In this document: positions 5,491 to 63,118 of the stretch, in pieces | Layout of the letters: each line of letters starts with the position of its first letter | How positions within the stretch are numbered: position 1 is the stretch's first letter | IMG/VR virus record: IMGVR_UViG_3300027851_000013 | DNA length: 64,000 bases | Source: an uncultured virus (IMG/VR IMGVR_UViG_3300027851_000013) | Taxonomy: Duplodnaviria > Heunggongvirae > Uroviricota > Caudoviricetes | Reading direction: 5' to 3' (one strand) | Notes under the pieces: model-generated | Seen by the model: the letters and a program-made list of their open reading frames with translations, nothing else | The model's database searches: none | Told to the model about the DNA's origin: nothing | Translations under genes and position numbers: made by a program

Positions 5491-6423
5491 ATGAATTTTT
5501 CTATCGATGACCACACCATCTATTTGACGGTTCACGGAAGTAGGGCCTACGGAACCAACCTAGATACCTCCGACACAGATTTCAGAGGAATAGCTATTCC
5601 ACCTAAGGAATACTTTTTAGGTTATTCTTTCGTTTTCGAGCAAAACGAGCAGCACGACCCTAACGACAAGGTAGTATTTGATATAAGAAAGTTCTTTAGG
5701 CTGGCCTCCGACTGCAACCCAAATGTGGTAGAGATACTATACACCGACCCTTCTAATCAAATTAAGGTCGATAAGTTAGGTGAAAGGCTTCTGGAAAACC
5801 GAGAACTATTCCTATCCAGAAAAGCTCGCTATACGTTTGCAGGGTATGCACACTCGCAGCTTAAGAGAATCAAGACCCACAGGTCTTGGCTTCTGTCCCC
5901 TCCAAAAGGCAAGCCTCTGCGCTCTGACTTTGGTCTTCCAGAGGAGGGAAATAAGATCGTTAGTGGGTCCACTATGGGTGCCTTTGACGAGTTGTCCTCC
6001 TCAGGCTATTCCTTTGGAAGTGACGTGATGCAGGTTATCCAAAAGGAAAAGCAGTACGCCAGCGCTCTTCATCATTGGCAGCAGTATGAAAAATGGCAGA
6101 AGAACAGAAATAAAGATAGAGCTGCCCTGGAGGCTCAGCATGGCTTTGATACTAAGCACGCTCTTCATTTGATAAGGCTGCTTAGGATGTGTGTCGAAAT
6201 TCTGTCGGGTAAGGGGGTCATTGTTCGACGTCCTGACTTCGAGGATCTTCTGGCCATTCGTCGCGGAGAGTGGACCTACGATAAACTGATAGAGGAAGCC
6301 GAATCCCTGGATGCTGAGGCGGCGCGTCTCTACGAGTCTTCGCCCCTGCCAAAGAACCCTCCTGTACACAAGCTAGATGCCCTTTGTATCTCGTTGGTGG
6401 AGGAGTGGCTATCTAGAAAGTGA
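5491..6423 (+). CDS. Pol-beta superfamily nucleotidyltransferase (RlaP/YcgL-like)
   Basis: GSRAYGT...SDTDFRG, NPNVVEIL, and DTKHALHLIRLL motifs. Confidence 0.85.
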   Translation: MNFSIDDHTIYLTVHGSRAYGTNLDTSDTDFRGIAIPPKEYFLGYSFVFEQNEQHDPNDKVVFDIRKFFRLASDCNPNVVEILYTDPSNQIKVDKLGERLLENRELFLSRKARYTFAGYAHSQLKRIKTHRSWLLSPPKGKPLRSDFGLPEEGNKIVSGSTMGAFDELSSSGYSFGSDVMQVIQKEKQYASALHHWQQYEKWQKNRNKDRAALEAQHGFDTKHALHLIRLLRMCVEILSGKGVIVRRPDFEDLLAIRRGEWTYDKLIEEAESLDAEAARLYESSPLPKNPPVHKLDALCISLVEEWLSRK

Positions 6424-6432
6424 TAGTTTGTC

Positions 6433-7455
6433 ATGTCATCCCAGCTACTGACACGAGAAGAATTTAAGTCACAGGTTTTTACCCGTGACTCTCATAGGTG
6501 CGTTCTCTGTTCTAGTCCTGCTGTTGACGCCCATCACATTATAGAGCGCAAGCTATGGCCTGACGGTGGGTATTATCTAGACAACGGAGCTTCAGTGTGT
6601 GCTTCTTGTCATCTGCTTTGCGAAGAAACAAAAGTATCTTGCGAAACTCTAAGAGAAAAGTGCGGAATAAGAAAAGTCATTCTGCCTCCTCATTTCGATT
6701 CCTCGTCTCGATTTGATAAGTGGGGCAATGTGTATTTATCCTCCGGGCTCAGAACTCCGGGTGAGTTGTTTTTTGAGGAGCAGGTTCAGAAGATTCTTTC
6801 TGATTCCTTACACGAATTCACTCACATAATAAAATACCCCAGGACTTATCACTTGCCATGGTCGCCTGGTGCTACAAGCGATGATAAGACGCTGGAGTCA
6901 GTCAGCCAGTTTGAGGGTAGGGAAGTAGTGGTTACGGCCAAAATGGATGGCGAGAACTCCTCTCTTTATAGGGACCACATACATTCACGGTCATTATCCT
7001 ACACGCCTCATGAATCTAGGAATCTTCTCAAATCTCTTTGGTCCCAGATCAGGTATGATATACCCGATAGATGGAGAGTTTGTGGAGAAAACCTTACTGC
7101 AGTTCATTCCATAGCATACACAAACCTATCTCACTTCTTTCAAGTTTTCTCCATATGGAATGAATGGAATGTGTGTCTCTCTTGGGATGACACTGTGTCA
7201 TGTGCTGACATGCTTGGGTTACGCACTGTTCCTGTTCTATACCGAGGAATCTGGAACGAAAACGTACTCAAAGAAATCGACGTGTCTTCTTTGGACGGAG
7301 ATCCATGCGAGGGTTACGTTGTTAGAGTGGCATCAGATTTCAAATACTCTGAGTTTCGTCGTTTAGTAGGCAAGTTCGTTCGGAACAACCATGTTCAAAC
7401 AGATCAGCACTGGATGAGAAAAGCTGTTACGTTTAATGGATGGGTCGAAGGATGA
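6433..7455 (+). CDS. ATP-dependent RNA ligase with N-terminal HNH-like zinc domain
   Basis: KYPRTYHLPWS; motif I KMDGEN, III CGEN, IIIa FQVFSI, IV EGYVVR, V KFVR; N-terminal CxxC..DAHHI..CxxCH. Confidence 0.85.
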   Translation: MSSQLLTREEFKSQVFTRDSHRCVLCSSPAVDAHHIIERKLWPDGGYYLDNGASVCASCHLLCEETKVSCETLREKCGIRKVILPPHFDSSSRFDKWGNVYLSSGLRTPGELFFEEQVQKILSDSLHEFTHIIKYPRTYHLPWSPGATSDDKTLESVSQFEGREVVVTAKMDGENSSLYRDHIHSRSLSYTPHESRNLLKSLWSQIRYDIPDRWRVCGENLTAVHSIAYTNLSHFFQVFSIWNEWNVCLSWDDTVSCADMLGLRTVPVLYRGIWNENVLKEIDVSSLDGDPCEGYVVRVASDFKYSEFRRLVGKFVRNNHVQTDQHWMRKAVTFNGWVEG

Positions 7456-13624: not shown

Positions 13625-14020
13625 TCTGCTCAAGTCCATGGGACTTGAGTTAGGGAAAGAGAACAAGTTCAAGTTCAACTTGAATATGGGTACGATCGGG
13701 TGCAGGTTCGAATCCTGCCCTCCCCGCCATTTTATGGGGAGGTAGCCCAACTGGAAGAGGCTAGTACCCCTCAATCCCTTCGTTAGTCTATTCTCTAATC
13801 TTGGAGACCCGAATCGATCGCCATCTCAACCTCTCGTTTACCCTTGCCTAAGATGATGGTTCAACTCCATCCCCCTTCGCTCAGCAACCAAATTCTTTTG
13901 GTTGCTGAGCGAAGGGGTGGTCTAATGGAATGACATAGGCACTTAGATCTAAAAAACGAGATTAAATGTCGTTGGCGTGAAAAAATGAAACGGGTACCTA
14001 CTAAGTAGGACTACATCTGG
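13625..14020 (+). ncRNA. large structured RNA with two circularly permuted tRNA-like modules (13688-13769 and 13845-13941); ends approximate
   Basis: Each module runs T arm, loop-closed acceptor stem, D arm, inside a closing helix; no ORF in the region. Confidence 0.75.
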
Positions 14021-19265: not shown

Positions 19266-19723
19266 TGGATCGTGATCGGAGAACAGAAGAACTCGCTCTT
19301 TCTCGCAGAATTGCGAAGGCGGAAAATGAGAGACGCAAGCAAGCAGAGGAAGAGGCGCGACGTCAGAGAGAAGATGAGAGACGTCCGCTAGAGCAGAAGA
19401 TCTCCCTCTTAGAGAGTCGGCTTTCTACGCTAGAGGCTCATGTAAGAAGTCTCTCCGTTAGAACCAAATCAGAAGTGTCTGCGGAAGAACAAAAAGAATA
19501 TTGTCTCAAGGTTAGAAAGTCCCTGCTGACGGATAGAGAAGCTCTCTTTGTAAGAGGACCGTGGGACCCACCGGAAGTGTGGGCTGTTCCTTTACCTACC
19601 AGCTATTATGCTCCTGATGCTCGTAACATATACCTGTGTCAGCGAAAAGGAACGTACATTCTTAGTGTATGCAACGGGATGAAAGCTAAGAGCGGGTACG
19701 TAGTCCTTGGCGTGATTTCATGA
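19262..19723 (+). CDS. hypothetical coiled-coil protein
   Basis: ATGA overlap start MMDRDRR. Confidence 0.55.
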   Translation: MMDRDRRTEELALSRRIAKAENERRKQAEEEARRQREDERRPLEQKISLLESRLSTLEAHVRSLSVRTKSEVSAEEQKEYCLKVRKSLLTDREALFVRGPWDPPEVWAVPLPTSYYAPDARNIYLCQRKGTYILSVCNGMKAKSGYVVLGVIS

Positions 19724-19726
19724 AAT

Positions 19727-19812
19727 AGGGATGTGGCGGAATGGCAGACGCACTGGACTAAGGATCCAGTGGCCGAAAGGCCGTGAGGGTTCGACTCCCT
19801 CCATCCCTACCA
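19727..19812 (+). tRNA. tRNA-Leu(AAG)
   Basis: Class II tRNA; CTGGA-CTAAGGA-TCCAG anticodon arm; CCA. Confidence 0.88.
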
Positions 19813-19813
19813 A

Positions 19814-20016
19814 GCCCCTGAAGTTCAAAAGGAAGAACACCGGAAAAACGGAGCCGGGCCGTAAATGGCATCTAAGCACCTGCCTATAAAGCAGGGAAAC
19901 CTTAAGGTTGCAGAGGCACCGAATGGCACTGAGGACCAGGGTCGCTAGGGAAGCGCGTTTCCTAATTCTAGGTTTTGGTTTAGGTGGTGGAAGTTCGAGT
20001 CTTCCCAGGGGCGCTA
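19814..20016 (+). ncRNA. tRNA-like RNA with about 150 nt of structured sequence replacing the anticodon arm
   Basis: GCCCCTG/CAGGGGC acceptor, GTTC/GAAC D stem, GGAAG-TTCGAGT-CTTCC T arm. Confidence 0.7.
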
Positions 20017-20021
20017 ATTTT

Positions 20022-20095
20022 GACGCGATGTCTGAGTGGTTAGGACATAGATTGCAAATCTAATGGACGGGGGTTCGAATCCCTCTCGCGTCTCC
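20022..20095 (+). tRNA. tRNA-Cys(GCA)
   Basis: TT-GCA-AA loop, U73. Confidence 0.88.
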
Positions 20096-20117
20096 TAGTG
20101 TTATGTAAAGACAGTAA

Positions 20118-20193
20118 GCGGGTGTAACTCAATTGGTAGAGTGCCAGCCTTCCAAGCTGGATGTTGTGGGTTCAAGCCCCATCGCCCGCTCCA
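20118..20193 (+). tRNA. tRNA-Gly(UCC)
   Basis: CCAGC-CTTCCAA-GCTGG anticodon arm, CCA. Confidence 0.95.
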
Positions 20194-25753: not shown

Positions 25754-25877
25754 GTGCCAAATGCTGTAAAGACTACAACTGTCGCGTGCTGGTTCGATTC
25801 CAGTCCACCTCGGAAACGATGTGGTAGCTCAAATGGTAGAGCAATAGTCCAAACGTCTTTATAAATCCTGTTGGCAC
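25754..25877 (+). ncRNA. Y RNA-like gene C (YrlA-type, full tRNA-like module)
   Basis: GTGCCAA/TTGGCAC and GTAAAGAC/GTCTTTAT stems; T arm GCTGGTTCGATTCCAGT, closed acceptor CCAC/GTGG, D arm GCTC/GAGC. Confidence 0.85.
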
Positions 25878-25880
25878 TTT

Positions 25881-25955: not shown

Positions 25956-26031
25956 GCCAGGTAAGCTAATCTAGTGAAAGCGTTTGACTGAAGATCAAAA
26001 GAGTTCGGAGCGTAACCGAAACCTGGTGCCA
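25956..26031 (+). tRNA. tRNA-Phe(GAA) with non-canonical T loop
   Basis: TTTGA-CTGAAGA-TCAAA anticodon arm; T arm TTCGG-AGCGTAA-CCGAA; CCA. Confidence 0.8.
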
Positions 26032-27804: not shown

Positions 27805-28609
27805 CCCATCCTATTTAGGGTGGTATGACCCTTGTAGAAGCTCTCGTATCGCCGCCCTTGGTTTTGGTTAGTATCTACTTATCGCTAAAGATTAGCGGCC
27901 TGCGCAAGAGACTTGATTTATGACCCGAGAAGCTAAATTATGGGCAGATGAGTCAGGAACCACCTGGTGGGAAGTTACCCAAGAGGGCGCCGATCCGGTA
28001 GGCCTGCAGGGACCTGGTCCGTGCAGGGGATTGCAGTATGTTCCCAGACTGGAGTTTGACTCCAGGTTCACTCTAGTTACTGCGCCTAAGGCAGATAATA
28101 ATCCATTTTCCAAAATTATGCCTCTCTACAAACCTTCTAAGAAATTAGGTATGAGATGACAGACTATCCCTCGCTTTTGGAGCGTATCTCCTTAGATTCT
28201 CTTTGCGACAGCAGAAGACCCAAACCGGGCCGAGCGGTAGAGGTGGCCTGCGCGAACCCTGAAATAAAAGACAAGCTCTCCAGGCTAACCTCTGATGATG
28301 TTTCTCGCATACATCTAAGCAGTCTAGCTTTGACTCTCATATCTGCGCATCGCTGATGTTCTACTGCCACATGACTGTGGAATGCCACAGGTGCGCCGCA
28401 CAAGCGGATATGAAAGTTTTTGTCGGAGAGGTCAGACCACTTCAGCCTGAGGACACGAAACACCATAACTTGACTCTTCCTGCCGGATGGATGTGGAAAG
28501 AAAGATATGGATATTTCGTTGACTCAAAGTTTAGGTATACAAATACTATTCCATACTATGACGCGGTATCTATCCTGTGCCCTGAGTGTGTGGAAAAGGA
28601 CCCTCTTTG

Positions 28610-30802
28610 ATGCAGTTTGACACCTTATACCACAAGGGTTCCTCTGGTGCTCTATACTCCTGGAGAGTATGGACAGAGGGAGCTGACGTGTGCACAGAAT
28701 ATGGTCAAATAGACGGTAAAAAGCAGCTTGCTCGAAAGACAGCTGACGCCAAGAACGTGGACAAGTCCAATGCCACCACACCAGAAGAACAAGCGGTTGC
28801 TGAAGCTAAGTCCATGTGGACTCATCGAGTAGAGAGAAAGTATCGTCGTACTATTGATGAAGCCAAAAATGATGAGATATTTCTTCCCATGTTGGCTTCT
28901 GAATTCGAGAAGCGAAGAGGTCAGAAGAAGGACGGTCACACCTATCCGTGTGACGTGCAGCCTAAACTGGATGGTTGCGTCTATGGTAGCACAGTCTTGA
29001 CTACCTCAGATGGACCAAAGACAATCCAAGAAATTGTAGAAGGGAGACTTTCCCTAGAAGTTCTCTCTTACAATGAAAGCAAAGAGGTGTTTGAGTTTAA
29101 GAGAGTTGTAGGTTGGTTCAATAACGGGTATGCGGACCACACTCATTGGTTAGACGTAGTTCCTGAATTTGGTAATCACATTAAGTGCACTAGCGATCAT
29201 AAGTTTCTCACTCCATCTGGATGGAAGGAAGCCCGAGACCTAGACCCTAAATGCGATCTAATACTTTCTTTTGACGACAGTTCGTACTTCAACTCTTTGC
29301 TGGCTGGGACCCTCCTGGGTGATTCTATGCTGGTCGTGGAAAAACGTGGGTCTGGGACATCATACAGGTCAAAGTTCGCTCATACAAACAAAGAATTCTT
29401 TGAATTCAAGAAGAGCCTTTTAGGGCTCACTGGCTCGTCTGTAACGTACACTTCTGGATTTGGATCCAGAGGGAAGGCGTTCATTTCTTCCGCTCTCACT
29501 TCGTCCACATTCCCTATATCTAGGTTTTATCACACAGGTCACTCACCTAATGTTGGAAAACGTAAGGTAGTGTATCACGAAACCTTACGTGAGCTTCTTT
29601 CCCCAGAAGCCTTGGCATTGTGGATCGGTGATGATGGTTCCATACAGAATAATAATGGAGACCCAACCACGCCTCGTTTATACTTGCACACTCACTCCTC
29701 TTCAGAGGATCAGATCGAGGAATACAGGAAATACTTTAGATCAGAGTGGGATTGTACTCCTTCTGTGTACACAGACAAGGTAGTAGAGGACACCGGTAAT
29801 GTCCCTGGAAAGTTTCTTTGCTTTAGTACCAAGGACACTCTTTGGATCTTGAACAAGTTAAGAACAAAGCACTGCAAGGGTGTTGAATACAAGTTTTACT
29901 TCCCGACTGAAGGGTATGTAAGACCTGTAACAAAAGGACCTGTCTGGCAGCGATTCCATGTGAGGCACGCTAAGTTCATGCCTGTTGCTGCTAAATATGA
30001 CATCGAGGTTGAAGACAACCACACATATGTGGCGAATGGACATGTTATCCATAATTGTAGGGCTCTTGCTTACTGGGACGGAGAAGACTTGAAGCTCCTT
30101 TCCCGAGGAGGGAAGGAGTACAACTGTCCTCACATAATTTCTGTTCTGAAGAACGTCCTCCCTCCGAATCTAGTTTTAGACGGGGAGCTTTACTTGCACG
30201 GAGTCGGGTTTCAGACCATTACTTCGTGGGTGAAGAAGTTACAAGCGAACACAAGCAAGATACAATATCATGTGTACGACTGTGTGCTGCTTAATGACCG
30301 AAGCGCCAGCTGGGTTGACAGGTATCACCACCTATACGCTTTCTTTAACACATCCTCCCATAGATTAGGGGACGTTGTTCATTTGGTCGAGACTTATGAG
30401 GCTCACAACGAAGACGAAATCCTTAGGATCCACAATAAGGTAGTCTCGAAAGGGTACGAGGGAGCCATCGTCAGGATGTACGATGATAGCAAATATCAGT
30501 TTGCTTATAGGTCCAAGAGATTACTCAAGGTCAAATCCTTTAATGACTCGGAGTATGAGGTTGTAGGGTATACTACGGGCAAGGGCAAGTTTGCTGACTG
30601 TGCTGTATGGATCTGTAAAGCTGGAGATAACACCTTTCAGGTGGTATCCATGGGCTCGATGGAAGAGCGAAAAAGACTTCTGCAAGAAGCCGAATCTTAT
30701 GTGGGGTGCTTGTTGAAGGTAAAGTACTTCGATCTCACAGATGACGGAATCCCAAGATTTCCTGTTGGAATAGGCTTTAGGATGGAAGAGGATATGTCAT
30801 GA
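28610..30802 (+). CDS. lig: ATP-dependent DNA ligase, intein-containing
   Basis: PMLA, KLDG|CR, LDGELY, YHVYD, EGAIVR, RSKRLLKVK, PRFPVG. Confidence 0.92.
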   Translation: MQFDTLYHKGSSGALYSWRVWTEGADVCTEYGQIDGKKQLARKTADAKNVDKSNATTPEEQAVAEAKSMWTHRVERKYRRTIDEAKNDEIFLPMLASEFEKRRGQKKDGHTYPCDVQPKLDGCVYGSTVLTTSDGPKTIQEIVEGRLSLEVLSYNESKEVFEFKRVVGWFNNGYADHTHWLDVVPEFGNHIKCTSDHKFLTPSGWKEARDLDPKCDLILSFDDSSYFNSLLAGTLLGDSMLVVEKRGSGTSYRSKFAHTNKEFFEFKKSLLGLTGSSVTYTSGFGSRGKAFISSALTSSTFPISRFYHTGHSPNVGKRKVVYHETLRELLSPEALALWIGDDGSIQNNNGDPTTPRLYLHTHSSSEDQIEEYRKYFRSEWDCTPSVYTDKVVEDTGNVPGKFLCFSTKDTLWILNKLRTKHCKGVEYKFYFPTEGYVRPVTKGPVWQRFHVRHAKFMPVAAKYDIEVEDNHTYVANGHVIHNCRALAYWDGEDLKLLSRGGKEYNCPHIISVLKNVLPPNLVLDGELYLHGVGFQTITSWVKKLQANTSKIQYHVYDCVLLNDRSASWVDRYHHLYAFFNTSSHRLGDVVHLVETYEAHNEDEILRIHNKVVSKGYEGAIVRMYDDSKYQFAYRSKRLLKVKSFNDSEYEVVGYTTGKGKFADCAVWICKAGDNTFQVVSMGSMEERKRLLQEAESYVGCLLKVKYFDLTDDGIPRFPVGIGFRMEEDMS
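28976..30055 (+). mobile_element. intein (360 aa) with LAGLIDADG endonuclease
   Basis: Starts CVYGST, block B KCTSDHKF, LAGTLLGDS and LALWIGDDG helices, ends YDIEVEDNHTYVANGHVIHN before Cys+1. Confidence 0.93.
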
Positions 30803-31979: not shown

Positions 31980-32103
31980 GTGCTGAATGCGAGAAAGACT
32001 ACAATCCAAACTGGGGATTCGGGTTCGACTCCCGAGGTCTCTCCGGAGATCTAGTCTAATGGAAGGACATCAGTAACTACGTCTTTTTCAATTCTGTCAG
32101 CAC
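31980..32103 (+). ncRNA. Y RNA-like gene E (YrlA-type)
   Basis: GTGCTGA/TCAGCAC stem; TCGGGTTCGACTCCCGA T arm; GGTCTC-tccg-GAGATC; GTCTAATGGAAGGAC D arm. Confidence 0.88.
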
Positions 32104-32112
32104 ATATGTTTC

Positions 32113-32805: not shown

Positions 32806-34431
32806 ATGGCTAATAAGTCTATTTTTGGTGGTGCTACGGCAGGTAAGAGGCCGAGGGCCGTTCCCCTAGATTCTAAGGGAAAGGTTACTCGAAATGAAGC
32901 GGGAGGTCTGGCTTACCCGCTCACAAATCGTGCCGCCCTTGCGCAATATGCCTGCACAGGCACCTTCAGCAACACGTACTACGCTTCTGCTTCGGACCAG
33001 TTGACGAAGACTCTGGAGCTGGCATCCAAGGTGGACAACGTCTTCCTTGCCAAGACCGCCATTTACTCCAGGAGGTCTGCCTTCATGAAAGACATGCCTG
33101 CCCTTTTGGTGGCTGTTCTTTTTGCTCGTGCCGGCAACAATGATGTGGAGGCCTCCCGCTTGTTTCGTACCGTTTTTCCGATTGTCATTGACAACGCAAA
33201 GATGCTCCGAAACTTCGTGCAGGTAGTTCGATCTGGTGTTACGGGGCGGAAGAGCCTCGGCACCATGGGCAAGAGCGTGATCAACAATTGGTTTGACCGC
33301 AGAACTGCTGACCAAATCTTTCGTGATTCCGTAGGCAACGATCCTTCTTTGGTGGATGTCATTAAGTTGGCACATCCTAAGTCTGGGTCTGATGCAGCGA
33401 AGCATGCCACCTTCAATTACCTTCTGGGTAAAGAAGGTGCAAGAATCGCTTCCACTCTTCCTGACTCTATTCGGGAGTTTGAGGCTTTCAAGGCCAATCC
33501 CAAGAAAGCATCTGTACCCAAGGTTCCCTTCCAGTTGCTTACTTCTTTGGACCTGGACACAAAGCAGTGGACCGAGATTGCATTGAACGGTGGCTGGCAC
33601 TTTGTTCGTATGAATCTAAACACTTTTGCGCGCCATGGTGTGCTAAAGAATGCGGACGTAGTGTCAAAGCTGGCGGACAAGCTTAGGGACGAGAAAGAAA
33701 TCTCTAGTTCCAGAGTATTCCCGTATCAACTTCTGATGGCGTACAAGGCTACTGAGGCGTCTTCGGATATCCCCATGCCACTGAAACTGGCGCTTCAGGA
33801 TGCTATGGAGATAGCTACCAAGAATGTTCCTCCGCTCTCTGGGAACGTATGGGTATTTCCTGACGTATCTGGCTCCATGAGCAGCCCAGTGACAGGCCAT
33901 CGTAAGGGCGCTACTACTGGTGTCCGTTGTATTGATGTTGCTGCGCTTGTTTCAGCATCAATTCTTCGTACGTCACCCACTGCCAACGTGCTTCCTTTTG
34001 ACACGCGTATGCACGCCGCTTCTCTAAACCCAAGAGATTCGGTTATGACAAATGCGAAGAAGTTGGCCTCATTTGGTGGCGGTGGTACCACTGTATCGCT
34101 CTGCTTTGAGCATCTTCAAGGCAAGAAGGCTGATGTTATCATCATTGTATCGGACAACGAATCGTGGCTAGATAGACCCGTCTCTTCTTGGGGTAGGGCT
34201 TCCACCGCCTCTGAGGCTGGCTGGCAGCGCATCAAGGCGAAGAACCCTGACTGCAAGCTGGTTTGCATCGACATTCAGCCGTATGCCACGACTCAAGTCG
34301 CCGATGAGCGGAACTCCGTTCTCAACATTGGCGGTTTTTCTGACAGCGTGTTTGAGGTAGTCTCTGCTTTCGCCCAGGGGTCAGACTCCAGCTTTTGGGT
34401 TGAGAGAATAGAGTCCATGCAAGTGGACTGA
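32806..34431 (+). CDS. rsr: Ro60/TROVE RNA-binding protein (Rsr)
   Basis: NEAGG, MKDMPALL, MLRNFVQ, IKLAHPK, MNLNTF.RHG, VFPYQL; C-terminal vWA DVSGSM, GGGGT, SDNESW. Confidence 0.95.
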   Translation: MANKSIFGGATAGKRPRAVPLDSKGKVTRNEAGGLAYPLTNRAALAQYACTGTFSNTYYASASDQLTKTLELASKVDNVFLAKTAIYSRRSAFMKDMPALLVAVLFARAGNNDVEASRLFRTVFPIVIDNAKMLRNFVQVVRSGVTGRKSLGTMGKSVINNWFDRRTADQIFRDSVGNDPSLVDVIKLAHPKSGSDAAKHATFNYLLGKEGARIASTLPDSIREFEAFKANPKKASVPKVPFQLLTSLDLDTKQWTEIALNGGWHFVRMNLNTFARHGVLKNADVVSKLADKLRDEKEISSSRVFPYQLLMAYKATEASSDIPMPLKLALQDAMEIATKNVPPLSGNVWVFPDVSGSMSSPVTGHRKGATTGVRCIDVAALVSASILRTSPTANVLPFDTRMHAASLNPRDSVMTNAKKLASFGGGGTTVSLCFEHLQGKKADVIIIVSDNESWLDRPVSSWGRASTASEAGWQRIKAKNPDCKLVCIDIQPYATTQVADERNSVLNIGGFSDSVFEVVSAFAQGSDSSFWVERIESMQVD

Positions 34432-39864: not shown

Positions 39865-41211
39865 ATGTACATCACAAACACCGACTTCTATCAGCTGGCA
39901 ATGGTCTACTCCCATTGGAGGAGTGGTCGACACAAGGTGTTGGCGACAGCAGAGGCATACTTCCGCAGGGTTCCAACGGATTTGTCAACAAATGACATTA
40001 TCATGTCTGGAGCGTATAGGATAGCAGAGCTGGTACACACCTCTTCCTTTCTAGATTCCGTCTCCCTTATTACTAAAGATCTTTTGGAATCTTTCATTCC
40101 TCACGGCCACGTTGACGACTTTCACGCCTGGCTTCATAATGATTTTGTACAATCGTTTAAACGTGTCAGCATAGTGTGTGCTCCTGATGGAGAGCGCATT
40201 TATTACGATCACCCCGTAGTACAAGTCTGTGGCCCCATATGCTGGGTCCATCTCCTGGAGACACAGATACTCAGTATCTTGAACTCTTCTGTCCGTACAG
40301 CATCACTTGCTCACAAGATTCGACGAGTGACTCCTTCTCGAATATCTCTTTTCGAGTTTGGTACTCGTCGAATTCATGAGGCTCAGGCAGTTCATGTGGC
40401 AGTGGACTCGATTGTTGGCGGATTTGACGCCACCTCTAATTTAGAGGCAGGCCGAGTCTACGGCACGCCTGTTCGAGGCACTATGGCCCATTCATATGTC
40501 ATGTCCTATGGTTTGGGTGGGGAGCTATCTGCGTTCAAGGATTTTCTTAGGTCCTATCCCGAAACCAACTCCCTTCTCATTGACACTTACGATGTGAGGA
40601 AGGGTATACTTAATGCCATTCGTGCATCATTCGAGACACACATACCGCTCAATGCAGTCCGTCTTGATTCGGGGGAAATTAAGTCTCTGGTTCCGTTCAT
40701 TAGAACTACCTTGGACGGTATGGGATTCAGCGGGACCAAGATAGTAGTATCTGGAGATTTCTGCGAGGAGAAGATTTCTTCTCTGGGCCAATTCATACCT
40801 ATAGACGGTATCGGAATAGGTTCCAGAATTAGTGATCCAGGGTTCTCGATGGGCTTCGTCTATAAGCTAGTGGCCGCGGAAGGAAAGCCTGTCATAAAGA
40901 TGGCTGGAAACAAGACTAGCCTTCCTGGAGCCAAGATTTGGACCAAGCTCGGATCCTGCTCGTATTTATATGATACAACAGCAGACACTGCCACCCTTTC
41001 AGAAAGAACAGTCGGGGAGTCCGTTCTCGTCGACTCCGCCCGCATCTTCTTTCCTCGTTTGAAGATGGAGGACGTACGGTCACGTATCTCAGCTCCTCCT
41101 TGTGTGTCTTTTTCTCGTTCTTCTGTGTCAGAGTGCTATCATAACACCTTAGAGGCGCATAAGAATGTCATGCCTACTCAGGTTCCTTGGATGGTTAAGG
41201 AAGGGTCTTGA
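39865..41211 (+). CDS. pncB: nicotinate phosphoribosyltransferase
   Basis: TDFYQLAM, LETQIL, EFGTRR, TSN, GTMAHS, LIDTYD, VRLDSG, VYKL. Confidence 0.88.
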   Translation: MYITNTDFYQLAMVYSHWRSGRHKVLATAEAYFRRVPTDLSTNDIIMSGAYRIAELVHTSSFLDSVSLITKDLLESFIPHGHVDDFHAWLHNDFVQSFKRVSIVCAPDGERIYYDHPVVQVCGPICWVHLLETQILSILNSSVRTASLAHKIRRVTPSRISLFEFGTRRIHEAQAVHVAVDSIVGGFDATSNLEAGRVYGTPVRGTMAHSYVMSYGLGGELSAFKDFLRSYPETNSLLIDTYDVRKGILNAIRASFETHIPLNAVRLDSGEIKSLVPFIRTTLDGMGFSGTKIVVSGDFCEEKISSLGQFIPIDGIGIGSRISDPGFSMGFVYKLVAAEGKPVIKMAGNKTSLPGAKIWTKLGSCSYLYDTTADTATLSERTVGESVLVDSARIFFPRLKMEDVRSRISAPPCVSFSRSSVSECYHNTLEAHKNVMPTQVPWMVKEGS

Positions 41212-59388: not shown

Positions 59389-59403
59389 CATTTTGAGTCT
59401 TAG

Positions 59404-59436
59404 GGAAAGGGGTGCTTCGGTGCCCCTTTTCTTTTT
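59404..59436 (+). terminator. intrinsic terminator
   Basis: AAAGGGGTGC-TTCG-GTGCCCCTTT followed by a T run. Confidence 0.7.
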
Positions 59437-59455
59437 CCTTCCTGTTGAGGTCCTT

Positions 59456-60298
59456 ATGCACAGCGATAGTTTTTTCACCATCGGGTCTACTCATAGAGTA
59501 TGTCAAGATTATGCCATGTCGGGCAGGACTCGATGGGGTAAGTCTTTTGCTATTTTGTCGGACGGATGCTCAGGAAGCCCCAATACCGACTTTGGTTCTA
59601 GATTTCTGACTAGAGCTGCGTATTGGGCACTCAATCAGTTCAACAACTCCTTTCCTTCTGGCAGTCTTCACATAACGGCCTCGGCCTTTGCCAGCCAGAT
59701 GGCCTCCTCTTGTAACATCGAGTTTGAATGTCTGGATGCTACCCTGCTCATGGCAGTGGAAGGAACGAGCGGAGAAAAGGAGGGCGTGTGGGCGTTGGTG
59801 TTTGGGGATGGCGTGGTGGCAGCACGTCATAGGCACAGCCACAAAATCACTCTGTACGCCATTGAATTTCCCCACGGCTACCCTGCCTATGTAAGCTACC
59901 TGTTGGACTTGGAGAGGCTTAAGGGATATGTCAAGCATACACAGGGCCAACCTGCGCTTCTTCACCATTATCGAGAAGGACTGGCAGAGGCCCCCTCTCC
60001 TCTCCCCTTCTTTGATCTTTCTTCGAAGGAGTGGTCCATTCCCTTTACCTGTTTCTTTCCGTCAGACGAGTACGACGTAATGGCACTTTTCTCTGACGGC
60101 ATTGAGTCTTTCAACTGTGCAGAAAAAGACGCGCAAACAGAACTTGGCCTGGCCGATTTAGTAGGTGAGTTTCTGTCCTTTAAGGGTCATGCAGGAGAGT
60201 TTGTAGTGCGCCGAGCCAAAAAGGCGATCTCCAAGCTGAAAGAACTAGGATATTCTCACACTGACGACTTTTCCATGGCTGCTATTCACATGGGGTGA
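59456..60298 (+). CDS. PP2C-like protein phosphatase
   Basis: G..H..CQD, SDGCS, DATL, GDG, SDG, TDDFS. Confidence 0.85.
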   Translation: MHSDSFFTIGSTHRVCQDYAMSGRTRWGKSFAILSDGCSGSPNTDFGSRFLTRAAYWALNQFNNSFPSGSLHITASAFASQMASSCNIEFECLDATLLMAVEGTSGEKEGVWALVFGDGVVAARHRHSHKITLYAIEFPHGYPAYVSYLLDLERLKGYVKHTQGQPALLHHYREGLAEAPSPLPFFDLSSKEWSIPFTCFFPSDEYDVMALFSDGIESFNCAEKDAQTELGLADLVGEFLSFKGHAGEFVVRRAKKAISKLKELGYSHTDDFSMAAIHMG

Positions 60299-60861
60299 GG
60301 ATGCTCTTCGTCATCGATATGCAGGATGAGTTTCTTCGTGAAGTTTCTTGCCTTGAATCGAAGTGGTCTTTTGTAGGGTCTGTCGCCTCTGTGGTGCGAA
60401 AAGCCAACGACAGGGACATTCCTGTAGTATTTGTGGAATATGTAGGCTACGGTAAGACTATTTCCGCTCTACAGGACGCTGCCAGAGGTCAGTTCACTGT
60501 GGTCAAAAAGAAAGACGACGATGGGTCTGACGAGATTCTTTCCTACTTGGAAGAAGAAGAGGGCATAGATCTGGACTCGCCCTCAAGTTACCCTAATCTC
60601 ACCTTTTGCGGAATCAATAGCGACGCCTGTGTTCTCCTTACGGTAGGAGGAGTTCTTCGACAAGGGTTCAACTGTCGCATTGTGCAGAAGGCTACAGCCA
60701 ACGCATGGGGGAAGATTTCCACCATTAACGATTCTGGCCTTGTTCGTATATGGAGAGACGCCTTCCGGCCCTTGGATCCTCACACAATGGTTAGACCGCC
60801 ACCTGCTGAGGGGTGGAAGCAGCCTATGAACAGAAGGCTACGTCTTATCAAACGCTTCTGA
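60295..60861 (+). CDS. isochorismatase-family cysteine hydrolase
   Basis: VIDMQ..F, KK.DDGS, CGINSDACV. Confidence 0.8.
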   Translation: MRMLFVIDMQDEFLREVSCLESKWSFVGSVASVVRKANDRDIPVVFVEYVGYGKTISALQDAARGQFTVVKKKDDDGSDEILSYLEEEEGIDLDSPSSYPNLTFCGINSDACVLLTVGGVLRQGFNCRIVQKATANAWGKISTINDSGLVRIWRDAFRPLDPHTMVRPPPAEGWKQPMNRRLRLIKRF

Positions 60862-60864
60862 GCC

Positions 60865-60882
60865 GAACCCTGGACATAATAA
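60865..60882 (+). promoter_or_regulatory. putative phage promoter motif (copy 7)
   Basis: GAACCCTGGACATAATAA. Confidence 0.55.
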
Positions 60883-61417
60883 GACCATGTCTCAGCATCT
60901 TTCCAGTTACAAAAAGCTGACTCGAATTCGAAGCAAGCACAACACTTCTGAGTCTCAGGATTTTTTGTTTTCGTCTTCGGACGCCCTGCGGATACGTCAA
61001 CTCATTGCGTATTCTCTTGTGGTATTTTTTGCTAAGTTGTATGGCAAAAAGGTACCTGATATTTCTTCTGTTCCGAAAGAGTTCTTGGAGCAGAAGAGAG
61101 TGAGAAAGCAAGCAAGAAAATGATACTGCATCTGGAGGTTTCATGCCTACACTCTTTTCTTTGTGGGTGGATAAGTGTCGTTCTCTTCTCCCTTCTTACT
61201 TTTCTCATGGGCCTAGGTCGTACGTCATGACAAAGCAAGAAGCCCATTACCTCCTGTTTCAGGATGCTGTTCTCTCTCGAAAGGAAGAGAACCTGAGCGT
61301 CTCCGAATGGGAGGAACGGATTACTGAGGAGCCCTTGTTGAGAGACGCATCTGACTTGGCTGGACAAACTGTCATCGATGCCATTACTTGTTTTGTGTGG
61401 GGATGGGATAGGTTCGT

Positions 61418-63118
61418 ATGAAGGTTACCATCAAGGGTAGCAACACAGAAGTTTCCCTAGGTAATTCTGATTTCTTAGCGTCGGGCGGAGAGGGGTCCGT
61501 TTACGTGAAGAAGGATATTGCCTTCAAGATCTACAACGACCCAGCCAAGATGATCCCGGCAAGCAAGTTTGCAGAGCTTGCCTCCATTACTAATCCAAAC
61601 GTAATAAGGCCCAAGGAAATCCTTTGTAATGGCGGGGGAAAACATATTGGCTATACCATGCGCTTTGTTAGAGACACGCTGTCCCTATGTCAGCTGTTTC
61701 CAAAGTCTTTTAAGGAGCGCGAAGGCCTGAGTCACTCCAAGGTAGCTTCTCTTGTGCAAAACATGAGAGATACCGTTGCAGACATTCACAAAGCTGGAGT
61801 GTTAGTTGTAGACCTCAATGAGCTGAACGTTTTGGTGTCTAAGGACTTTTCCGAGTCCTTTTGGATCGACGTAGACAGCTACCAGACTCCGCACTTCAAG
61901 GCTACTGCAATCATGCCGTCAGTGCGAGACCCACTGACTGCGAACCTAGACTTCACACCTCTCAGCGACTGGTACAGCTTTGGCATTCTGGCCTTTCAGT
62001 TGTTTGTGGGCATACATCCCTACAAAGGAAAGAGCAGCAAGTTCAAGTCTCTAGAGGACAGAATGAAGCACCACGTGAGTGTGTTTGATTCTTCTGTGTC
62101 TATTCCGAAAGTATGCTACTCGTTGGACGTCATTCCTGACGTATATCGTTCTTGGTTTCGCGCTGTGTTTCAGGACGGTAAGCGTCTTCCCCCTCCAGAT
62201 TCGATGCAGGCTACCGCAGTTCTTGCTTCGATTCTGCGGACGGTAGTTTCTTCGGGTAACTTGGATATTTCGGAGGTGAGTAAGCTAGCTTCCACCATTC
62301 GATCGTACCACTACGTCAACAGCTCGAAAGAGTTCTTTCACTGTGGAGGATCTGTAGTCACAGGGACGGGAACTAGTCTTTTCTCTTCTGATAGCAACGT
62401 TCACGTAGGAACTACACTAACGGGCGATGTTCCTGTGTTCGCCTTCACTCAGGGGTTGGACGTATCTCTGTGGGCCGAAGGAAAGAACGTACCTCTTGCT
62501 ATGCACGCAGAAGATTTGTCCTCCTACGACAACAGGCTGTACGTGAAGAACCGCGGGAAGGTATACGAAATTCTTCTGCACTGTGCTCAGAATATGGACG
62601 GCACCAACAAGGTGTTGGCCTCCGCCCACTCTCTCGCCTCTGTCCTAGAAAATGCGAGCAAGCTGTTTCAGGGCGGTGTGTATCAAAATATGCTAGGTTC
62701 TTGCTTTGTTTCCTTGTTTCCTCGGTCTAAGGCTGCCTATCAGGTGCGTATTCCTGAGCTGGACTCGGTTAAGTTTTTGTCGGCAAAATTCGACCGCGGT
62801 GTACTAATGGTCCTAGGTTCGAAAAAGGGAGTCTATTCTCGCTTTATTTTCAGGTTTACGGATGACTTTACGTCATATGACGTAAGAGAAGTAGAGAACG
62901 TGACTCCTACCGAGCTGAACTTTGTGACCATGGACTCTGGCGTTTGCGTATCCCTTACGGAGGACGAAAACCTTGAGTTGTTCTCCTCGAAGAAGGGGTC
63001 CACTTCCGTAAAGGTGATAGAAGACAGTATGCTAGGCGGAGACATGCTTCTTGTGAAGCGTGGGCCCAAGCTAGGGTTTATCAGAGGAAACTCTGTATTT
63101 GAAATGAAGATGAAGTGA
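61418..63118 (+). CDS. Ser/Thr protein kinase-like protein with C-terminal extension
   Basis: SGGEGSVY, AFKIY, H..GV.V.DLNELN.L, IDVDSYQ, SDWYSF, HPYKG. Confidence 0.88.
   Translation: MKVTIKGSNTEVSLGNSDFLASGGEGSVYVKKDIAFKIYNDPAKMIPASKFAELASITNPNVIRPKEILCNGGGKHIGYTMRFVRDTLSLCQLFPKSFKEREGLSHSKVASLVQNMRDTVADIHKAGVLVVDLNELNVLVSKDFSESFWIDVDSYQTPHFKATAIMPSVRDPLTANLDFTPLSDWYSFGILAFQLFVGIHPYKGKSSKFKSLEDRMKHHVSVFDSSVSIPKVCYSLDVIPDVYRSWFRAVFQDGKRLPPPDSMQATAVLASILRTVVSSGNLDISEVSKLASTIRSYHYVNSSKEFFHCGGSVVTGTGTSLFSSDSNVHVGTTLTGDVPVFAFTQGLDVSLWAEGKNVPLAMHAEDLSSYDNRLYVKNRGKVYEILLHCAQNMDGTNKVLASAHSLASVLENASKLFQGGVYQNMLGSCFVSLFPRSKAAYQVRIPELDSVKFLSAKFDRGVLMVLGSKKGVYSRFIFRFTDDFTSYDVREVENVTPTELNFVTMDSGVCVSLTEDENLELFSSKKGSTSVKVIEDSMLGGDMLLVKRGPKLGFIRGNSVFEMKMK

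Follow-up and report, generated by a model that had tools for sequence, protein, structure and literature searches.

A tRNA-shaped RNA of 200 nt, encoded by an uncultured virus of the Caudoviricetes, belongs to a real, widespread and not yet annotated RNA class, in which a tRNA body carries a large pseudoknotted domain in its variable arm. Its gene occupies positions 19814-20013 (+ strand, as for all features below unless marked otherwise) of the window, the 64,000-nt stretch of DNA that was analysed as a whole, and extends up to a discriminator G, with CCA not encoded. The product is very probably an unspliced structured RNA, and it likely belongs to a response to tRNA damage and RNA repair. 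The reading as a whole, put forward tentatively, is that of a mimic which derives from tRNA-Arg, stays unspliced and locks its own anticodon, and whose putative function would be that of a nuclease-proof decoy or scaffold under tRNA damage. The virus record containing the window is 133 kb long, linear and about 34% complete (CheckV), and encodes 20 tRNAs (ARAGORN), an RNA ligase, RlaP, a Ro60 protein and three YrlA-like RNAs. Both ARAGORN and Rfam miss the RNA at 19814-20013.

The initial annotation had recognized the acceptor stem, D stem and T arm of a tRNA, and all are present at 19814-20012. The acceptor stem is GCCCCTG/CAGGGGC (19814-19820 with 20006-20012), the D stem is GTTC/GAAC with loop AAAAGGAA (D arm, 19823-19838), and the T arm is GGAAG-TTCGAGT-CTTCC (19989-20005). 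The distance reported between the D and T arms is likewise correct, with 150 nt separating position 26 from position 48, as is the placement of the gene in a Leu-Cys-Gly run: it begins one base past the CCA of a tRNA-Leu(AAG) (19727-19812), with which it probably shares one transcript, and is followed by the tail G-CTA and by tRNA-Cys and tRNA-Gly (20022-20193). The AAG anticodon is rare for tRNA-Leu in bacteria; it is also found in tRNA-Leu of loci L005 and L024. Another tRNA of the window (25956-26028; Phe by relaxed ARAGORN) is missed at default settings. A tRNA body with a D-to-T gap of 100-260 nt is unique in the 133-kb genome and never arises in 100 Markov-resampled genomes, and thus is not a chance arrangement.

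Homologs uphold the tRNA body, as the proposed check by covariation showed. In an alignment of 74 sequences, 94.8% of cells are paired and both partners vary in 21 of 28 pairs, with covariation in the acceptor, D, anticodon-position and T stems; all seven acceptor pairs (96.7% of cells paired) and all five T-arm pairs change on both sides. The standard tRNA order with free ends is present in all 67 members parsed at full length (148-251 nt). The contacts that give a decoding tRNA its L shape are retained: the Levitt pair, A15-U48 or G15-C48 (A15 with U48 at 19988 in the window copy), occurs in 61/67 members (permutation mean 32, maximum 47, in controls that ignore the relatedness of members), 63/67 have GG in the D loop, and the T loop is present. 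The insert contains no useful open reading frame, as had been claimed, and no conserved one.

Several features point to descent from tRNA-Arg(ACG), as inferred by comparison of the sequences. A20, which stands beside G18G19 in the D loop of the window copy, is found in 49/67 members, compared with 67/69 tRNA-Arg and 67/323 other tRNAs of the same loci, the last count being inflated by Ala rows that are probably misparsed. The anticodon-position loop contains ACG, and its partner strand CGU. The identity elements of ArgRS are A20, C35 and G/U36. The RNA might then be an arginyl-tRNA specialist or an ArgRS-sensing switch, which is charged with arginine when its pseudoknot opens and, kept off the ribosome, acts as a non-ribosomal arginine donor or sensor. 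A20, the C35/G36-like CG of the loop, a purine discriminator in 60/67 members (A in 39, G in 21, U in six and C in one) and an Arg isoacceptor as nearest upstream tRNA in 13 of the 43 members having one are in keeping with this idea. However, the loop becomes GTG, ATG or ACA in members that retain the pseudoknot, its length ranges from 6 to 18 nt, acceptor stem sequences are unconstrained, and the signature may reflect ancestry only, so that such a role appears quite improbable. CCA is encoded in 11/67 members.

The anticodon arm, which the initial annotation took to be replaced by the insert, is present at 19840-19857 and covaries. Because this arm occupies the anticodon position, the extra 131 nt of the window copy belong to the variable arm, whose domain measures 76-177 nt across members. 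The loop of the arm (AAAACGGA in the window copy) lacks U33, as it does in all 67 members, and is therefore unlike the 7-nt U33 loop of a decoding tRNA. Its AAACG (19846-19850) instead forms a pseudoknot with an internal CGUUU located behind GAAGCG (CGTTT, 19956-19960), a 'codon' carried by the RNA itself. At least four Watson-Crick pairs form between loop and CGUUU in 62/67 members (permutation mean 52, maximum 58, in controls of the same kind), and compensatory changes occur in eight (L064, L066, L118, L120, L123, L140, L186 and L187), for example GAGUG/CACUC in L064, AAAUG/CAUUU in L118 and L187, and AAGCG/CGCUU in L140. L005, L041, L050 and L107 do not fit, their pseudoknot being weak or shifted, and several Polyangiaceae copies have lost its fourth pair. 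With its anticodon folded back on the conserved domain, the RNA cannot read the genetic code.

The rest of the domain combines a fixed core with variable surroundings. A small hairpin (19858-19869), present in long forms only, is followed by connecting helices (19870-19903; 19870-19877 with 19978-19985 and 19897-19903 with 19969-19975), which differ in length between homologs and enclose an optional branch hairpin (19879-19895). The core 5' strand (19905-19921) consists of NGG, T-T-G-C, an RGAN loop, GCA and CC; the core 3' strand AGGGAAGCG (19947-19963) includes the internal codon and CCT. Between them lies a variable hairpin (19924-19944) of 11-55 nt across homologs, of which L314 keeps only a short, plain form. 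The NGG pairs with CCN behind the pseudoknot strand (19961-19963) over at least 3 bp in 70 of 100 cores (permutation maximum 64), and the CC pairs with GG (19948-19949), which is CC/GG in 92 cores, CU/AG in seven and CG/CG in one, the outer pair being fixed by the search pattern. Within the core, TGC may pair with either GCA or GCR. The single-sequence minimum-free-energy (MFE) fold proved misleading. Two hairpins of the initial annotation, AACCT/AGGTT (19898-19910) and TAGGGAA/TTTCCTA, are such single-sequence predictions, and homolog covariation gives long-range pairs in their place. The covariation model is 8.6 kcal/mol less stable than the MFE fold (-60.7 vs -69.3), the energy of the pseudoknot not being counted, and the MFE of the window copy is itself ordinary (z = -1.05).

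Conservation of this kind could also indicate a catalytic or ligand-binding RNA, with the tRNA body only a tag for processing or stability and the core cleaving or ligating the docked anticodon loop, or binding a nucleotide signal. T-x-C, RGAN, GCAC and G-GAAGC are fixed elements of the core, and T-x-C, GCAC and G-GAAGC stay fixed across phyla while their surroundings vary; 17 insert positions are invariant in 74 sequences, although the search patterns themselves account for part of this invariance. A scan that omitted the core 5' half returned 32 loci, 20 of them new, and 19 of these 20 retain the core and the full build. No phage protein is common to five carriers (G000, G003, G016, G332 and G418, one of them a 39-kb provirus), a result that fits this reading and speaks against an obligate partner gene. 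In Sandaracinaceae, a conserved 436-aa protein is encoded directly behind the RNA (L105:2124-3431, L108 and L112); it has no match in Pfam, NCBIfam, PHROG or Atlas. In L091 (742-912, - strand) an HNH/HTH-type reading frame ends inside the RGAN loop, as HNH-type frames do in ribozyme loops; this contig is cut and the 5' half of the member is unseen. The junction A-CC..GG-GA-AG furthermore resembles the P4 junction of the TPP riboswitch (Rfam consensus). Yet Rfam matches no ribozyme and no riboswitch at E <= 1, the bases of the TPP pyrophosphate pocket are not retained and the loop has no conserved scissile dinucleotide, which leaves a catalytic or ligand-binding function improbable. The likeness to the P4/P5 arm of the TPP riboswitch (RF00059) lies in the junction sequence ACC..GA / GUAGGGAAG; the RNA has no pyrimidine arm, does not conserve the pocket bases, has no Rfam match, and shows neither both sensor arms nor a 5' UTR position. 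Divergent members weaken this resemblance, as they do that to a Ro60 helix discussed below.

The initial annotation had left two interpretations, a tRNA-scaffolded non-coding RNA and an enzymatically spliced tRNA intron. The first is borne out by the conserved family and core, the covarying tRNA stems and the Levitt pair; the second fails. An unusual intron, whether removed by enzymes or self-splicing, would suit the perfect tRNA ends, the RNA ligases nearby and the context of RtcB operons. However, both strands of the anticodon stem lie 5' of the insert, and in none of the 67 members does a single excision yield a canonical class I tRNA, with a 5-bp stem, 7-nt loop and U33 in the anticodon arm; under a relaxed rule nine do so, with five different anticodons. 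The ends of the insert vary between members, and no group I or II intron matches in Rfam at E <= 1. Near-identical contigs span 19721-19870 and 19895-20017 without any joint that removes the insert, although the four matching runs are contigs, of which three are only guessed to be RNA, and start, end, strand and level cannot be read from them. An intron is therefore highly improbable. The possibility that the insert is an unconserved remnant is refuted by its membership of a conserved family; the RNA is neither intron nor remnant. Ten wastewater sequencing runs contain at most 0.34 of the words. One contig of a relative (X1; depth 633) matches 19834-19865 and 19947-19968 with unknown letters between, and is read as a diverged relative rather than as splicing. 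It begins about 3 nt 5' of its acceptor stem, a hint of an abundant discrete RNA in a library of unsure type.

The family comprises 100 distinct cores; all counts are minimum values and reflect a bias of the search patterns. Homologs sit in phage tRNA arrays, including those of cultured Streptomyces phages, and in chromosomes of soil bacteria of the Polyangiales. Pattern scans retrieved 16 true members among 22 viral loci, 51 metagenome loci and eight true members among nine genome loci, in addition to more divergent members. Two other scans mainly hit tRNAs or chance sequences (true members: 11 among 301 genomes, counting G188/G166, and two among the 80 loci listed). The covariance model (R1), with one full-length match on G000, scores the window copy at 86 bits, against about 45 at most for ordinary tRNAs, and added further Polyangiaceae copies. 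In Streptomyces phages, blastn matched 74 records at E <= 10, of which 13 on the core; the Alone3 copy is matched by 13 of 51 records, all of cultured phages, and the copies lie unannotated in tRNA clusters with an identical build. Rfam holds no family for the RNA as judged from the window and eight homolog loci, where it reports only tRNA and YrlA on neighbours and one weak tRNA-model match across L007. The available portions of PMC4201824, PMC7790460, PMC7824862, 10.1101/312249, PMC5389517, PMC10690425, PMC9650030 and PMC9697503 contain no description of this build, which may be among the unnamed candidates of Fremin et al. (PMC10690425).

By the features compared, the RNA fits none of the known classes considered (YrlA, tmRNA, intron-containing tRNA, decoding tRNA and TPP riboswitch). 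In T-box riboswitch-tRNA complexes, an anticodon is paired to a 'codon' within a structured RNA. Here the pairing is in cis, within one molecule that is not an mRNA leader and has no T-box match in Rfam. In tmRNA, a large domain leaves a tRNA-like body at the variable-arm position. This build and an occurrence in phages are shared with tmRNA (RF00023), from which the RNA is distinguished by a D stem, its own anticodon arm, a length of 150-250 nt and the lack of a G3-U70 constraint (position 3:70 is G-U in 7/67); neither ARAGORN at default settings nor Rfam calls a tmRNA, and there is no tag reading frame or conserved ORF. Bacterial tRNAs with group I introns also have a long insertion in the gene, in the anticodon loop rather than the variable arm, and the present RNA can yield no spliced product. 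Among phage RNAs, T4 RNA C and RNA D (species 1 and 2) are stable RNAs of unknown function in a tRNA cluster, according to the accessible part of PMC9697503, and RNA C has a T arm at its end and ACGGA in a loop; no homology to T4 rnaC was found, model R1 having no match to the T4 locus at E <= 1e-6, and the core is absent. Allo-tRNAs and irregular phage tRNAs are similarly non-canonical, with long variable arms and an occurrence in phages and delta-proteobacteria, and according to passages of PMC5389517 their stems are 8/4 or 9/3 and their loops decode, compared with 7/5 stems, no U33 and a conserved 76-177-nt domain here.

The closest parallels are with the YrlA Y RNAs (RF02553), which in the excerpted text of PMC4201824 and bioRxiv 10.1101/312249 are tRNA-mimicking non-coding RNAs with a D/T elbow and Levitt pair, located beside rsr and rtcBA and in phages. 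As described there, YrlA is circularly permuted (T before D), with a closed acceptor loop, no anticodon loop and termini that form the Ro60 stem, whereas the present RNA keeps the usual order of tRNA arms, leaves its acceptor ends free, and has both an anticodon arm and a variable-arm domain with a pseudoknot. The permuted T-AS-D order and RF02553 matches are both absent from it, and in place of the 5'-end motif GNCGAAN0-1G it has an internal ACCGAATG in 61/100 cores, lost in the others. The window contains YrlA-like RNAs of its own at 25754-25880 (RF02553, E 1e-8, under the gathering score), 31980-32106 and 13677-13787, a Ro60/Rsr gene at 32806-34431 (vWA_Ro60 and TROVE above cut-off), and, as RNA-repair context, an RlaP nucleotidyltransferase with an HNH-fused RNA ligase at 5491-7455; a single phage thus combines three YrlA-like RNAs, a Ro60 gene, RNA ligase and RlaP. 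Elsewhere it encodes a DNA ligase carrying an intein with a LAGLIDADG domain (28586-30802), as well as PP2C phosphatase and kinase genes and a nicotinate phosphoribosyltransferase (59393-63118, 39865-41211).

This neighbourhood raises the prospect that the RNA is a Y RNA of a new class, bound by Ro60 (Rsr) but ending like a true tRNA, with the helix CC-GAAU-G / C-UGUA-GG as the site for Ro60 and the tRNA part as tether for an effector. Five copies directly precede rsr or rtcB: no other identified element separates the RNA from rsr in viruses G003, G010 and G012, G237 has the order rtcA-tRNA-Arg-RNA-rsr, and in G166 (rtcR | RNA-rtcB-rtcA) the RNA is the first element. Ro60 is present in 6/10 Polyangiaceae carriers compared with 30/141 others (Fisher p 0.013) and in 10/10 other Polyangiales carriers, in genomes that are related and often incomplete. 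The helix is also similar to the terminal stems of the YrlA-like RNAs in the window and to the GNCGAAN0-1G motif as given in part of PMC4201824. On the other hand, CCGAATG occurs in only 61/100 cores and is missing from the rsr-adjacent copy in G237, a plain hairpin replacing it in L314; the rsr loci of carriers already contain YrlA-like RNAs; and the tRNA body lies on the other side of the helix than in YrlA. Among complete viral carriers, Ro60 is found in 12/22, two of these below cut-off, and rsr is absent from 10/22. YrlA RNAs are encoded within 4 kb of rsr; for the present RNA this holds in G003, G010, G012 and G237, while the distance to rsr is about 3-4 kb in G001, G008, W01 and W03 and 12.8 kb in the window. 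Ro60 is enriched among carriers but not obligatory, and a Ro60 ligand of this type is unlikely.

Other tRNA-like and Y-RNA-like elements occur near these loci. In Polyangiaceae, a second kind of tRNA-ended RNA (L248:1501-1627, L257:1501-1626, L263:1501-1638 and L264:1501-1639) has a Y-RNA-like GCCGAAG/CTTG helix inside its anticodon region, lies just behind rsr in L248 and L263, and looks like an un-permuted Y RNA. L253:1501-1631 (- strand) is a further tRNA body, interrupted by 55 nt that bear no relation to the core. Around rsr, L287, L289 and L291 have a Y-RNA-like terminal stem repeated in short tandem units, with no clear tRNA module, and in L250:1501-1800 (- strand) a tRNA-Arg(CCT) has tandem copies of its own 3' half behind it.

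Viral copies are mostly packed against tRNAs, whereas Polyangiales chromosomal copies are mostly free-standing. A sigma54-type site is situated 26-34 nt upstream of 12/19 fitted chromosomal or MAG copies (21 given), compared with 15/2616 background windows; none was found near the gene in the window. A TATC-N6-GATA palindrome (at most one mismatch), located 82-140 nt upstream of chromosomal copies, accompanies 7/12 copies with a sigma54 site, 0/9 others and 10/347 background windows. The two features of an RtcR/sigma54 regulon, a -24/-12 promoter and the palindrome of rtcR-rtcB promoters, are thus present in 12/19 and 7/12 copies, respectively. The exact palindrome stands at the rtcR start in 5/6 divergent rtcR-rtcB loci, compared with 0/6 rtcB loci without rtcR, and also before one rsr gene; E. 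coli has a related sequence with different spacing. From this position we infer that the palindrome is the RtcR site, and chromosomal copies appear, by their upstream sequences, to be switched on together with RNA-repair genes. Against a link with RNA repair, nine of the 21 chromosomal copies are without promoter or operator, although some of them stand behind tRNAs; just two of some 20 chromosomal copies are placed within rtc/rsr operons, and RtcB is found in 1/12 complete viral carriers. RtcR responds to damaged tRNA, and a nuclease-inhibitor role has been proposed for YrlA, in the available sections of Hughes et al. (PMC7790460).

A mechanism can be proposed for the tRNA-damage mimic. Host tRNA-processing enzymes would cut the RNA out of tRNA-array or sigma54 transcripts, with induction when tRNAs are cut, via RtcR in bacteria and via infection in phages. 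Elbow and acceptor end would be offered to tRNA-binding nucleases or repair enzymes, while the anticodon, clamped by the core, could be neither decoded nor cleaved; given this combination, the RNA may act with host-encoded proteins as an 'armoured' tRNA, either decoy and inhibitor or docking scaffold. That decoy or scaffold is its actual role is proposed with reserve, as a possibility that could well prove wrong: an anticodon-reading nuclease might ignore a locked loop, and the need for an invariant core is not obvious. A broader reading, possible but rather doubtful, is a new class of functional RNA: a tRNA that brings along the codon for its anticodon, with a conserved core, catalytic or binding, gripping the helix which the two form. 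It would be an RNA-only part for tRNA repair or anti-defence (ribozyme or nuclease inhibitor), found in phages from several phyla and taken over by myxobacteria, where RtcR would control it.

Both phage tRNA arrays and the Rtc/Ro60 operon are regarded as responses to attack on tRNA; to these the present family adds a widespread, unannotated RNA class with a testable fold. With 13 records from cultured Streptomyces phages and an apparent RtcR promoter in bacteria, tests by deletion, induction, binding and cleavage are feasible now. The RNA may also provide a natural design for nuclease-resistant tRNA scaffolds.
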